Source: Patescibacteria group bacterium
GTDB taxonomy: Bacteria; Patescibacteriota; Minisyncoccia; Phycocordibacterales; UBA9973
Assembly (NCBI GenBank): GCA_038063535.1
Contig: JBBTUV010000001.1
Span: 21,570-85,569 of the forward strand
Length of the DNA: 64,000 nt
Reading direction: 5' to 3'
Part shown: positions 1 through 54,173 of the stretch, one piece after another
Position numbering within the stretch: position 1 is the first letter of the stretch
Layout: every line of letters starts with the position of its first letter
Notes under the pieces: model-generated
What the model saw: only the letters and a program-made list of their open reading frames with translations
What the model was told of the DNA's origin: nothing
Database searches by the model: none
Translations under genes and position numbers: made by a program

Positions 1-861
1 ACACTTTATAACAATATTCCGCACCTTCTGACCCCCGTTATCACCGACGCCAAGCGGGCGATACTTGCGCTCAAATGGGCAGCCAAGGAAATGGACCGCC
101 GCTACGATATTCTCGAATCGGAATCAGTGCGGGACATCGAGTCCTATCACCGAAACGTAAAAACCGACGATAACTTGCCCTACATCGCTATAATTATAGA
201 CGAACTTGCCGATATCATGAGCTCTTACCCAAGAGAACTCGAAGCTGCGATCGTGCGCCTAGCACAGATGTCTCGCGCGGTCGGGATACACCTCCTTCTC
301 TCAACCCAGCGACCGGAAGTCAATGTCATCACCGGGCTCATCAAGGCGAATATCCCGGCGCGGATCGCTCTTAAGGTTTCTTCACAGGTAGACTCGCGCA
401 CAATTCTTGACACGGGCGGAGCTGAAAAGCTCCTAGGGGCGGGCGACATGCTCTATTCCTCCGGCGAGGCCCCGCCGGAGCGCCTCCAGAGCGCTTTCAT
501 TTCAGAAGCAGAGGTGAAGAAAGTGGCAAAATATCTCGCTGACGCCTATAAAGACGAGGTCATGGAAGAAATCGCGCTTGCGGAAGGATCGATCTCGGCC
601 GACCGAAGCATCTTCGAGAGTGCTATCGATTCTTCGGAAGATGACGATGAAATGTACGAGGAGGCGCGAGCCTGCGTCATCGAAGCCGGCAAGGCCTCCA
701 CCTCATATCTTCAGCGAAAATTGAAACTGGGTTACGCTCGGGCGGCCCGGCTCATGGATATGCTTGAGGAGCGCGGGGTTATCGGCCCCGGCGACGGAGC
801 GAAGCCAAGGGAGGTGCTCGAGAAAGCAAATCCAGCTGGAGCTGAACCTCCCACCCAATAA
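1..861 (+). CDS. ftsK: DNA translocase FtsK/SpoIIIE, C-terminal motor + gamma domain (5' end outside window)
   Basis: Frame is open from nt 1. Motifs: ...NIPHLLTPVITD..., IIIDELADIM, LLSTQRPEVNVITGLIKANIPARIALKVSSQVDSRTILD. C-terminal winged-helix gamma domain YLQRKLKLGYARAARLMDMLEERGVIG. Confidence 0.85.
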   Translation, partial: TLYNNIPHLLTPVITDAKRAILALKWAAKEMDRRYDILESESVRDIESYHRNVKTDDNLPYIAIIIDELADIMSSYPRELEAAIVRLAQMSRAVGIHLLLSTQRPEVNVITGLIKANIPARIALKVSSQVDSRTILDTGGAEKLLGAGDMLYSSGEAPPERLQSAFISEAEVKKVAKYLADAYKDEVMEEIALAEGSISADRSIFESAIDSSEDDDEMYEEARACVIEAGKASTSYLQRKLKLGYARAARLMDMLEERGVIGPGDGAKPREVLEKANPAGAEPPTQ

Positions 862-864
862 AAG

Positions 865-1197
865 ATGACCAGGGATGCAAAAAAAATTCTGAAGTATGCG
901 GCTCTCTCTGTTTTTTCTCTCGTCATTGTGATCTATGCCTACTTCCGATCAACCGAATTGATTTGGGGAGTAAAAGTAAAAAACGTGGTTTTGCAGAGAG
1001 AAGAAAGTATGTTAAAAATAAGTGGGAACGCCAAGAACGCAGTGCACCTTGCCCTTAATGGACGGGAAATATCGATCGACCAGGCTGGGAACTGGAACGA
1101 GGCCTTGGCGCTTCTCCCGGGATACAACCTGCTCGATATAAACGCGAAAGATAAATTCGGGCATGAGAGCCAAAAAAGTTATCAACTAATCAATTAA
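865..1197 (+). CDS. hypothetical membrane-anchored protein (single N-terminal TM)
   Basis: ORF directly after ftsK and 1 nt before recA. Hydrophobic segment [16 protein letters not shown]. No recognisable family. Confidence 0.4.
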
Positions 1198-1198
1198 A

Positions 1199-2224
1199 AT
1201 GGCGAAAAAAGTGAAAAGTGAAGACTCAAAAAGTCCTATCCTCGAAGATACACTGAAGGCGATCCGGACAAAATTCGGCGAAGGAGCGATAATGAAGATG
1301 GGAGACGCTCCGAAAGTGGGCATTAACACTATTCCTACCGGCTCCCTGGGCCTTGATATGGCACTTGGGGTAGGAGGAATACCCCGGGGAAGGATCATTG
1401 AAATTTTTGGGCCGGAGTCTTCAGGAAAAACTACCCTCGCACTTCACATCGTCGGCGAGGCGCAGAGGCTCGGAGGTGTTTGTGCCTATATCGATGCCGA
1501 GCATGCGATGGACCCGGAATATTCTAAAAAACTTGGTGTAAGCATAAACGATTTATTGATTTCTCAGCCCGATACGGGTGAGCAGGCGCTCGATATTGTC
1601 GAGAGTTTGGTGCGCACGGGAAAAATCGACGTAGTGGTGATAGATAGCGTAGCGGCGCTTACGCCCAAGGACGAGATCGAGGGTGATATGGGAGCATATC
1701 ATGTAGGAAAACAGGCACGCCTGATGTCGCAAGCACTCCGGAAACTGACCGCGATTGTAGCAAGATCAAAAACGGCGGTAATCTTCATCAATCAGATTCG
1801 CATGCAGATCGGCGTGATGTTCGGAAACCCTGAAACCACTCCAGGCGGCAAAGCTCTTAAATTCTATTCATCTGTGCGCTTAGATATAAGAAAAATTGCC
1901 CAGATCAAAAAGGGGGATGAGGTCGTGGGCTCCCGGACTCGAGTGAAAGTGGTGAAGAATAAAGTTGCCGCCCCTTTCAAGCAGACAGAGTTTGACATAA
2001 TTTACAACGAGGGAATTTCCAAAGAGGGTGAGATCATCGCGCTCGGGGAAAAATTCAAGATCCTCGAGAAATCGGGAAACTCCTACGCATACGTTCCGGA
2101 GGGCGCAGAAGAAGTGAAGCTCGGGCGCGGTTATGACGCGACTCGGACGTTTCTCAAAGAAAATTCGAAGATCGCGGAAAGAATTCTCAAGGATATCCGC
2201 AAAAAATTTGCAGAGCAAGTATAA
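1199..2224 (+). CDS. recA: recombinase RecA
   Basis: Walker [38 protein letters not shown]. Full-length RecA architecture. Confidence 0.95.
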
Positions 2225-52099: not shown

Positions 52100-52120
52100 A
52101 GAATTTTTCTCACCATCAAA

Positions 52121-52143
52121 AAATCCCCTTGAGGGGATTTTTT
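52121..52143 (+). terminator. Rho-independent terminator of hup
   Basis: AAATCCCC-ttga-GGGGATTT followed by TTTT, 22 nt after the hup stop. Confidence 0.7.
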
Positions 52144-52422
52144 GATTTGGCTAAAATTTGGTAAAATTGAAAGTATGAGAAGCATGGAGTGGAGAAAATT
52201 AACGCGAGAAAGCCGAAACTGGCGGGAAGCAATAGGCGAAGCAGGGATTATCCTTCCCTCTTCCAGTGAAATTTTATCGGGCCGTTCTGCGCCGGGAGAT
52301 TTTGGAGAACCGTTCGCGACGGACATTGTCGTCGATGGTATCCTTTGCGATATCTACCGCAAAAATAGCTCGGAAGATACTATCCCTAGGGTCTTCGTCC
52401 ACCAAAAAGCCTAGCCCATTTT

Positions 52423-52986
52423 TTAGTATTTCCTGATCACTGCTTTGACGATGCCTAAAATATTCAGGGAGTGCTCCGGGTAGATATCGGAATATTTCTC
52501 ATTAGCGGGCTCGAGGTGTGGAGCACAGTTTTTTGTGCGGAGATATTTCATTGTGTATTCGCCGTCGACTTCCGCTATCACTATCTCCCCATCCTTGGCA
52601 GTCGTCGCCCGCTCGACGATGACATGGTCGCCTTCTTCGATATGCGCGTCGAGCATGGAGTCGCCGTCGACCTCAAGCATGTAAGTGAGTTCTTTCCTGC
52701 CTATCAAAAAATCATCGAGGTCGACGGTGTCCGAAAGTTCATCAACGTCCGACGGTGGCCCGGCTTTGACGAGCCCAGCCATCGGGATCTCCCCGAAAGA
52801 ATCGCTCGGCACGAGACGGCCGAGATTGTCTTTCGCTACCAGCCCTGCTTCCACCAATTTCTCTACCAATTTGAAGACCGCGTTCTTTGACTTGAAGCCG
52901 AAAAGTTTCAACATCTCGGAGTAGGTCGGCATGCGCCGCTCCTTTCGGTAAAAAATCTCAAGCTTCGCTTGATGAGGATTTTTCAT
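52423..52986 (-). CDS. lexA: LexA repressor (S24 peptidase)
   Basis: N-terminal wHTH. Cleavage-site region AG (..MAGLVKAG..). Catalytic Ser in VDGDSM and Lys in MKYLR. Confidence 0.85.
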   Translation of the reverse strand: MKNPHQAKLEIFYRKERRMPTYSEMLKLFGFKSKNAVFKLVEKLVEAGLVAKDNLGRLVPSDSFGEIPMAGLVKAGPPSDVDELSDTVDLDDFLIGRKELTYMLEVDGDSMLDAHIEEGDHVIVERATTAKDGEIVIAEVDGEYTMKYLRTKNCAPHLEPANEKYSDIYPEHSLNILGIVKAVIRKY

Positions 52987-52989
52987 GGC

Positions 52990-53199
52990 CTAAAAAGGCA
53001 TCGCAAAAGACGGAAAAATCTTGCGAGCAAGGTTCTGAAAAAAGCTCTGCCTTCTTGAGTAGCGAACTTTTTTAAGGAGGATCTTATGATCTCGCGCTTC
53101 GCGCGCATAATCCTCCCCCCGAAGGATCTTCAGGTCAATGACCTTATTAATCCTCTGCAATTCCCGCTCGACTATTTTTAAATACTCTCTCTGGGACAT
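52990..53199 (-). CDS. small basic protein (70 aa), first gene of the lexA transcription unit (start set at the internal ATG)
   Basis: MSQREYLKIVERELQRINKVIDLKILRGEDYAREARDHKILLKKVRYSRRQ... The stop is 4 nt before the lexA start. The LexA box lies 13 nt upstream of its ATG. Confidence 0.4.
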   Translation of the reverse strand: MSQREYLKIVERELQRINKVIDLKILRGEDYAREARDHKILLKKVRYSRRQSFFQNLARKIFPSFAMPF

Positions 53200-53211
53200 G
53201 GTTATAGTATA

Positions 53212-53229
53212 GGTGAACGCTCGTTCACC
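53212..53229. promoter_or_regulatory. LexA (Cheo-type SOS) box: perfect 18-bp palindrome GGTGAACGCTCGTTCACC containing GAAC-N4-GTTC
   Basis: Read directly. Matches the Gram-positive/Cheo consensus CGAAC-N4-GTTCG core. Sits at the promoter of the small-gene/lexA unit. Confidence 0.6.
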
Positions 53230-53264
53230 TGTCAAGCACGGGCTGGGGATACCTTAAAAGGCCC

Positions 53265-54173
53265 TTAATTAATGGCTCTTGGCCTACTCGAGTACTGTTC
53301 GTGAAAGAAAACTGCCATACCTAAAAATACTAGCAAGCCGCCAAAGAAAAAAGGACGGGTAATCTTCTCTCCCAGAAGAAGGCTCGCCCAGATAATGCCA
53401 GCGATTGGTTGGAGGAAAAACGACATGGAGGCCATGACGGCCGTCGCTTTTTTTATGATGTACTGATACAAAATATAATAAAGAACAGTGCCGCCCACAG
53501 CCACATAGATTACACAAAGCCAAGTCGTCAAAGAAATTTCTTTTAGCAGGCTGAGACTTCCTGAATGGAAGGAGAGTAGTAATGTTTGAGAGACAATGGT
53601 CGTGTAAATAAAATACTTAGTCAAAGTAAGAGGAGAATATTCACGTGAATACTTTCGGGAGAGAACCGAATAAAGGCTAAAGACTAATACTGCCCCAACT
53701 AAAGTAAGGTTGCCCGCCAAAGTCCCGTTCCAAACACTCCCTTTCCCAAAAAGAGGTGCGGCCACAATAAAAAGAACACCGATAAATCCCAAGAAGATTC
53801 CCAGCCATTTTTTCAAACTAATTTTTTCTTTGAGAATTACCAAGGAGAAAGCGGCGATGACCAGGGGGCCGGAAGCGTACATAGTAACTGCAATGCTTGC
53901 GGTAGTATGGTCGAGTCCCAAAACAAATAAAAAGACATTCAGGGTTCCCAAGAGGGAGATGAGGATCAGTTTTCTCTTGCCCGCAACAACTTCTTTGGTC
54001 TGAGTGAGCAAATATGGTAGGAAAAAAATATACGCAAAAGCAAAACGTAAAAAGGTAAATAAGTCGATCGGTAGTTCCCGAAGAGCGATCTTAAAAAAGG
54101 TGCCGTTCGCTCCCAAGATTGACATAATAATCACCAAAAAAAGAATTTGATATTTCTCAAATGTTTCTCTCAT
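53265..54173 (-). CDS. DMT superfamily (EamA-like) transporter
   Basis: 10 predicted TM helices in two 5-TM EamA repeats. 302 aa. Confidence 0.75.
   Translation of the reverse strand: MRETFEKYQILFLVIIMSILGANGTFFKIALRELPIDLFTFLRFAFAYIFFLPYLLTQTKEVVAGKRKLILISLLGTLNVFLFVLGLDHTTASIAVTMYASGPLVIAAFSLVILKEKISLKKWLGIFLGFIGVLFIVAAPLFGKGSVWNGTLAGNLTLVGAVLVFSLYSVLSRKYSREYSPLTLTKYFIYTTIVSQTLLLSFHSGSLSLLKEISLTTWLCVIYVAVGGTVLYYILYQYIIKKATAVMASMSFFLQPIAGIIWASLLLGEKITRPFFFGGLLVFLGMAVFFHEQYSSRPRAIN

Follow-up and report, generated by a model that had tools for sequence, protein, structure and literature searches.

A conserved small-protein gene precedes lexA behind a probable LexA operator in a Patescibacteria group bacterium

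Results

The lexA locus and its promoter

The locus described here lies in a 64,000-nucleotide (nt) stretch of DNA from a Patescibacteria group bacterium (contig JBBTUV010000001.1), which we call the window; L-numbers denote the other loci and contigs compared with it. The minus strand of the window carries a putative LexA operator, a small gene for a basic protein of an uncharacterised family and, behind it, lexA. The parts of this unit, with the evidence for each, are listed below in the order in which the minus strand is read.

53230 to 53235, minus strand: -35 hexamer TTGACA (promoter scan; conserved in related loci)
53211 to 53230, unstranded: putative LexA operator, inverted repeat AGGTGAACG-CT-CGTTCACCT filling the spacer between the -35 and -10 hexamers (repeat analysis; invariant in 77 orthologous sites)
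53206 to 53211, minus strand: -10 hexamer TATACT, with 6 nt between its end and the ATG (promoter scan; conserved in relatives)
52990 to 53199, minus strand: small gene, 69 amino acids plus stop, basic, uncharacterised family (list of open reading frames (ORFs); homologues; ratio of nonsynonymous to synonymous substitution rates (dN/dS); AlphaFold2)
52423 to 52986, minus strand: lexA, 187 amino acids, predicted N-terminal winged-helix DNA-binding region and S24 self-cleaving domain (domain searches; LexA structure alignment)

An earlier note on this DNA had reported a perfect 18-bp palindrome upstream of lexA. A check of the sequence places the 18-mer, GGTGAACGCTCGTTCACC, at 53212-53229, where it is self-complementary at 16 of its 18 positions and differs from its reverse complement at both central bases; the element is thus an inverted repeat with 9-nt arms (AGGTGAACG at 53211-53219 and CGTTCACCT at 53222-53230) around a non-palindromic CT centre. 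Its core, GAAC-N4-GTTC, reads GAACGCTCGTTC and occupies 53215-53226. On the minus strand the whole region reads TTGACA-GGTGAACGAGCGTTCACC-TATACT-ATAACC-ATG, and the repeat takes up the entire 18-nt spacer of a sigma-70 promoter (53235-53206) that agrees with the consensus at 11 of 12 positions. The operator therefore overlaps the promoter elements, lying in the spacer between TTGACA and TATACT, and induction of this promoter by DNA damage is predicted. Between the 18-mer and the ATG of the small gene there are 12 nt, and the TAG stop (52990-52992) is followed by a gap of 3 nt (52987-52989), not 4, before the lexA ATG at 52986; the basic 70-codon frame itself stands as described, with 69 amino acids, a stop and a net charge of +9.

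The earlier note had also equated the site with the LexA consensus of Gram-positive bacteria. The Gram-positive SOS box is CGAAC-N4-GTTCG, with tCGAAC-N4-GNNCGa in Streptomyces (PMC9380542), and the comparison holds for the GAAC-N4-GTTC core and fails for the flanks: the C/G pair of CGAAC...GTTCG is not matched, and an invariant T/A pair (GTGAACG..CGTTCAC) stands in its place. The core occurs once in the window against 1.39 occurrences expected by chance, and for the 18-mer with up to three mismatches the expectation is 0.02. Chance is excluded for the repeat at 53211-53230 by its placement and its conservation.

The lexA product

Residues 69-180 of the lexA product match Peptidase_S24 in Pfam (PF00717, E-value 9.8e-23), and its NCBIfam score against TIGR00498 is 101.1 bits, below the equivalog cut-off of 110.95; the Pfam family LexA_DNA_bind gave no match. 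A profile built from the LexA family aligns residues 9-187 to the Thermotoga maritima LexA structure 3K2Z (E-value 1e-22) and residues 18-186 to Escherichia coli LexA. The residues expected of a self-cleaving repressor, A75-G76 (VKAGPP), S110 (GDSM) and K147, are invariant among 18 homologues, and A75-G76 aligns with the cleavage region of solved LexA and UmuD structures. Sequence matches to this LexA number 3384 in Patescibacteria. On its domain content and alignment, we read the product of 52423-52986 as a divergent, architecturally complete LexA.

The operator and the small gene are conserved in relatives

We took 80 species-level genomes coding for a LexA related to this one and searched their six-frame ORFs with a hidden Markov model (HMM) of the small protein; with eight other contigs and the window these make up 89 loci. 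A homologue of the small gene lies immediately upstream of lexA, on the same strand, in all 89 (HMM E-values 1e-27 to 1e-38), and each of four initial look-ups of small-protein homologues had likewise found the gene directly upstream of an S24 gene. The spacing between the two genes in relatives runs from an 8-nt overlap to about 100 nt. An exact GAAC-N4-GTTC is present at most 200 nt upstream in 83 of 85 distinct upstream regions, the exceptions being L044, whose box lies 389 nt upstream, and L088, where the contig stops within the -10 hexamer. Across 77 distinct orthologous sites G-TGAACG-NN-CGTTCA-C is invariant, with CT or its complement AG at the centre and TTGACA and TATACT on either side (TATACT in 90 of 106 distinct promoter copies), and the leader downstream is unconserved. 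The relatives have no second box between the small gene and lexA, and no recurrent second LexA target or box was found within 2.5 kilobases (kb) on either side of lexA in 88 loci.

The small ORF has the marks of a protein-coding gene. Its median dN/dS over residues 1-48 is 0.09, indicating purifying selection, and its entropies at the three codon positions are 0.58, 0.37 and 1.28. An exhaustive HMM search at E-values of at most 1e-3 collected 303 clusters (50% identity), all of 34-107 amino acids. A non-coding upstream ORF or leader peptide was considered and rejected on the dN/dS of 0.09 and the 303 homologous clusters. The earlier note had counted a lack of conservation among the outcomes that would refute it, and in relatives the palindrome is invariant and the small ORF both conserved and coding; co-transcription of lexA with the small gene, which it had suggested, is likewise favoured by the placement directly upstream in 89 of 89 loci and by purifying selection.

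In one relative, L094 (about 500-760), the small ORF is degenerate, starting MSQAQYT and then running out of register, next to an intact lexA; the gene was lost naturally or the assembly is wrong here.

The operator travels with LexA

Metagenome contigs were scanned for the 16-mer GTGAACGNNCGTTCAC. Chance matches in unrelated high-GC DNA predominate, and the matches that stand in a promoter context are lexA operons, except for TetR genes elsewhere. A LexA relative lies near the site in 30 loci, and in 22 of these the small gene is near the box as well. Five higher-GC sister lineages (L125, L171, L183, L189 and L199) carry TTGACA-operator-TATAmT directly before lexA and have no small ORF. Because the operator is kept before lexA where the small gene is absent, it travels with LexA rather than with the small protein; by the same token the small gene is an insertion, specific to its lineage, between promoter and lexA. 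A role of the small protein as the operator-binding factor was rejected, given that the operator persists where the gene is absent.

Tandem GTGAACGnnCGTTCAC palindromes also stand before genes for TetR-family regulators on unrelated higher-GC metagenome contigs (L119, 10802-10842; L175, about 1008-1050). That unrelated organisms place this palindrome type in tandem before TetR genes as an operator invites the thought that a regulator other than LexA, whether a TetR-type factor or the small protein itself, binds the palindrome in the window. We give this very little credence: the operator and this LexA family are found together at more than 100 loci, some of which lack the small gene, the GAAC-N4-GTTC core is the one used by Gram-positive LexA (PMC9380542), and no TetR gene is adjacent in the window. 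With the site invariant in 77 orthologous copies and the same operator standing before lexA where there is no small gene, the suggestion of the earlier note that the box is a LexA operator and that lexA is autoregulated gains considerable weight. We conclude that a LexA operator is very probably embedded in the promoter spacer, and that a two-gene unit of small protein and lexA lies under it. Judged from the loci compared, the small protein is genuine and conserved, and has been added to the lexA operon in this lineage specifically.

Predicted structure of the small protein: a basic helical hairpin and an amphipathic tail

Homologues of the small protein come from metagenome-assembled genomes of Patescibacteria, where they are annotated solely as "hypothetical protein", and to our knowledge the family is unannotated. 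A distant member, P0286, is also encoded upstream of an S24 LexA. No variation was seen at N18, I21, D22 or H38 among 80 diverse members, and hardly any at I25, G28 and Y31. Searches of Pfam (with the single protein and with the 80 members), NCBIfam, PHROGs and PDB sequence profiles returned no family match, which covers LysM and every other Pfam domain, and no phage homologue was found in IMG/VR. AlphaFold2 models the protein as a helical hairpin with helices 3-27 and 32-61 (predicted local distance difference test (pLDDT) scores of the two predictions, 82.7 and 85.9), for which Foldseek searches of PDB and BFVD gave only generic hairpins (E-values above 0.5).

Two small helical proteins tied to LexA biology suggested themselves for comparison. 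YnzC (DUF896) of Bacillus subtilis, encoded in the LexA-controlled yneA operon, folds as a helical hairpin; gp7 of phage GIL01 is a small protein that binds LexA. DUF896 (PF05979) is not among the Pfam matches of the 80 members at E-values of at most 1, the PDB profile searches gave no match at E-values of at most 10, YnzC structures included, and neither YnzC nor gp7 appears in the Foldseek list for PDB. The leads to YnzC/DUF896, GIL01 gp7 and SulA were dropped, the searches against known families having given nothing above noise.

The protein carries a net charge of +9 in 69 amino acids, and family means lie between +8 and +10. Such a charge on a helical hairpin would suit a basic nucleic-acid binder (of DNA, RNA or the ribosome) that is induced by damage, for example for compaction or protection of the nucleoid. 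We consider this improbable, as no known DNA-binding family or fold was matched and the conserved Phe-rich amphipathic tail fits binding to lipid or protein better. This tail (pLDDT 64-72) follows helix 2; the last 15 residues of the protein are 28% aromatic, against less than 1% Phe in the first 45, and examples within the family are KGFFGRLF, RGFLARFF and QSFFSRL. The hydrophobic moment (muH) of the tail is 0.65-0.69; the value of 0.69 for the window protein and the family mean of 0.59 (mean z over shuffled tails 0.59) compare with 0.45 for MinD and 0.70 for FtsY. A canonical motif for binding the beta clamp (QL[SD]LF-like) occurs in none of 216 tails.

The tail invites comparison with known membrane-targeting helices, namely the MinD membrane-targeting sequence KGFLKRLFGG (PMC5471200) and the lipid-binding helices of FtsY (PMC3189734). 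Like these, it is short and C-terminal, combines basic residues with Phe and Leu, and has a comparable muH (0.59-0.69, against 0.45-0.70). The likeness is a resemblance and falls short of a firm match, the tail sequence being poorly conserved in the family and membrane binding being a prediction. We read the small protein as a cytoplasmic basic helical hairpin with a predicted amphipathic tail resembling those of MinD and FtsY.

An 18-residue segment, of transmembrane length, with a Kyte-Doolittle hydropathy of at least 1.6 is found in none of 85 orthologues and in 3 of 150 family representatives. A few members, P0141 and P0236, do have a full transmembrane segment, and a small protein under a LexA box with a hydrophobic or amphipathic terminus brings to mind SOS-induced membrane-active toxins or persistence factors such as TisB or DinQ. 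That the protein acts in this manner seems to us highly improbable: most members lack a segment of transmembrane length, a conserved soluble hairpin makes up the bulk of the protein, neither an antitoxin RNA nor a partner gene is apparent, and the gene would be co-expressed with a regulator of the essential type. P0236 (L089, 3001-3324) is itself an unusual member, with 107 amino acids, an acidic insert and, at the C-terminus, a true transmembrane segment. Its gene is surrounded by a run of small unannotated ORFs, there is no lexA in the 3.6 kb read, and one neighbour matches PHROGs of unknown function, for which reason this copy may be borne by a mobile element.

The strict linkage to lexA (89 of 89 loci) raises the further question of whether the small protein, made in stoichiometric amounts with LexA, modulates LexA or RecA instead of acting downstream, be it as a co-repressor or anti-cleavage factor in the manner of GIL01 gp7 or as a regulator of the RecA filament in the manner of DinI or RecX. 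The frequent 8-nt overlap with the lexA start, which suggests translational coupling, and the conserved polar residues N18, D22, Y31 and H38, which suggest a specific protein interface on a small hairpin, would agree with such a role. Sister lineages, however, have this type of LexA and this operator and lack the small gene, so LexA can do without the small protein; moreover, the protein has no similarity in sequence or fold to solved proteins beyond generic helical hairpins, its strong positive charge sets it apart from DinI, an acidic mimic of DNA, and its hydrophobic tail would be left unexplained. On balance we hold modulation to be unlikely.

The leader of the transcript

With the -10 hexamer ending 6 nt from the ATG, the operon mRNA in this genome is probably leaderless or nearly so. 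In relatives with an assignable ATG the -10 hexamer lies a median of 51 nt, and at most 151 nt, from the start of the small gene, and among 87 small-gene loci the window alone has a leader of 10 nt or less; in L214, which at 80% identity is the closest relative with DNA read, the leader is about 55 nt. Seven family representatives that the library search returned, and P0002 as well, have mis-called N-terminal extensions of the type "GERxFTYT", which are translations of the operator and the -10 hexamer. The spacing in P0002 and P0239 is that of the window, and short-leader versions therefore recur elsewhere. The same geometry is seen for lexA in L171, L189 and L199, where its ATG lies 6-7 nt past the -10 hexamer. 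Shine-Dalgarno motifs are essentially absent before the 24 gene starts sampled in the window, which makes a leaderless or near-leaderless mRNA plausible.

Several leaders of relatives carry elements of their own. Those of L041 (about 2380-2440), L017, L054 and many others open, just downstream of the -10 hexamer, with a short hairpin with an AGTCG loop (catgaccAAGTCGggtca), followed by an AT-rich 'attagtaaa'; the window is without this leader. No Rfam family was matched in the leaders of relatives. GC-rich hairpin repeats of two families, 'tacccctacccagcctccccctatgtagggggagg...' and 'gattgcgtcgcgcc...gcgcgacgtgattc', are inserted in the leaders of different genomes (L026, L031, L038, L040, L055, L062 and L070; and L046, L061, L065, L068, L084 and L087) and look like small mobile or repetitive extragenic palindromic (REP)-like elements. 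In L215 (1202-1465) and L044 a gene for a GIY-YIG nuclease of 87-91 amino acids stands between the LexA-box promoter and the small gene (PF01541, E-value 2e-15 for the L215 copy), a layout that would give a three-gene LexA-controlled unit.

Surroundings of the operon

Within the window (52984-53199) the small ORF and lexA share one reading frame with only TAG-GCC between them, a relation not shared by relatives, whose gaps vary between -8 and about +100 nt. Codons 5-13 of lexA (52958-52972 on the minus strand) include a hairpin, TCAAGCgaaGCTTGA and then GATTTTTTAC, that resembles a weak terminator. On the far side, a gap of 323 nt (52100-52422) separates the 3' end of lexA from a convergent HU gene and is far longer than in L001; it contains an ORF of 90 amino acids without a Pfam match, and relatives have additional small genes there. 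Upstream, the window has a gene for an EamA-family transporter (53265-54173) that separates comM from the operon promoter; in most relatives the promoter follows comM directly.

recA and other candidate boxes

The window's recA belongs to a second, tightly packed unit.

91 to 2224, plus strand: 3' part of ftsK (91-861), orf110 (865-1197) and recA (1199-2224), with gaps of 3 nt and 1 nt; no LexA box

The earlier note had found no GAAC-N4-GTTC in the 160 nt upstream of recA, and the motif is indeed absent from 1040-1198. That segment is not intergenic, being the 3' part of the coding ORF of 110 amino acids (865-1197), which ends 1 nt before recA. On the source contig (L091), where ftsK starts 16 nt from a divergent gene, no box was present upstream of the ftsK-orf110-recA unit even with one mismatch allowed. 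As far as its sequence goes, recA is under no recognisable LexA box here. The only credible box in the 3.3 kb of intergenic DNA in the window is the one at 53215; all other candidates are relaxed matches that lie in coding sequence or have at least two core mismatches, and they are fewer than chance predicts. The product of orf110 is conserved and has an N-terminal hydrophobic segment; its sole match is weak and below the cut-off (Glucodextran_B, E-value 1.4e-5).

Discussion

The explanation that best accounts for the locus, and in which we have good confidence, is that of a LexA-repressed operon with the gene for the 69-amino-acid protein first and lexA second. A LexA dimer on the spacer site would block RNA polymerase, as the position of the site suggests. 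Upon DNA damage, filaments of RecA on single-stranded DNA would trigger self-cleavage of LexA at A75-G76 by a dyad of S110 and K147, residues that are all present here, and the derepressed operon would then give rise to the small protein and to fresh LexA, the latter switching the operon off again after repair. It is from established LexA biology that we infer repression, RecA-stimulated cleavage, derepression and shut-off.

An account of the SOS network of Patescibacteria already exists (Sanchez-Osuna, Barbe and Erill 2017, Environ Microbiol 19:3465, cited in PMC8565304). As in the autoregulation of Gram-positive LexA, a 16-bp dyad with a GAAC-N4-GTTC core overlaps the lexA promoter, and the repressor combines an Ala-Gly cleavage site with a self-cleavage domain of the S24 Ser-Lys type. 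Unlike the Gram-positive SOS box, the site has T/A flanks (GTGAACG-NN-CGTTCAC); it fills the entire spacer between the -35 and -10 hexamers and is invariant across dozens of species, and lexA is the second cistron. LexA autoregulation through a box of the GAAC-N4-GTTC type is thus ordinary, and it is the strictly lexA-linked family of small proteins that is uncharacterised.

The SOS-controlled cell division inhibitors of Gram-positive bacteria are typically small, mutually non-homologous, controlled by LexA and encoded beside lexA (PMC6851548). The small protein resembles YneA, SosA, ChiZ and DivS in being lineage-specific, adjacent to lexA and under a LexA box. Those inhibitors, however, are encoded divergently from lexA and pair a single transmembrane helix with an extracellular part that often contains LysM, whereas the small gene described here is the upstream cistron on the same strand, separated from lexA by 3 nt, and its product is predicted to be cytoplasmic with a short amphipathic C-terminal tail. 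The comparison with YneA and ChiZ drawn in the earlier note thus survives with respect to the position next to lexA, and, with no transmembrane segment, LysM or homology and with the genes co-directional, it is an analogy only. By that analogy, the small protein could be an SOS-induced checkpoint effector that works close to the membrane, at its inner face, and most likely on cell division; we put this forward tentatively, at somewhat less than an even chance.

Several observations weigh against this picture as a whole. The 12-nt core occurs in the window at chance level and means little by itself, and near-identical palindromes before TetR genes (L119, L175) make the sequence alone non-diagnostic; it is the linkage to lexA that counts. 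The LexA scores below the TIGR00498 cut-off and lacks a match to Pfam LexA_DNA_bind. In L094 a degenerate small ORF stands beside an intact lexA, and the weak hairpin within lexA codons 5-13 could attenuate lexA relative to the small gene, or be coincidental. With regard to a function in division, the amphipathicity of the tail is modestly above that of shuffled tails (mean z 0.59), a stretch of transmembrane length is present in only 3 of 150 representatives, unlike in YneA, SosA and ChiZ, and a first cistron would be expressed at a basal level along with LexA, an awkward arrangement for a potent inhibitor of division.

If the small protein is nonetheless an effector, it might found a new class of SOS effectors of Paceibacteria-type Patescibacteria, in which a peripheral-membrane hairpin would be the principal or near-sole output of LexA, coupling damage to the arrest of division or replication, with recA outside the regulon. 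This broader proposal is speculative and we regard it as doubtful.

The operator is ordinary in kind and unusually clean, and offers a ready-made position weight matrix for definition of the regulon. Throughout one large lineage the small gene is the fixed first cistron of the lexA operon, and sister lineages with the same promoter lack it. Patescibacteria are a large group of mostly uncultivated bacteria with very small genomes, in which cell-cycle control and the response to damage are almost unknown, and the small protein is a concrete, clonable candidate for a damage-checkpoint effector among them.

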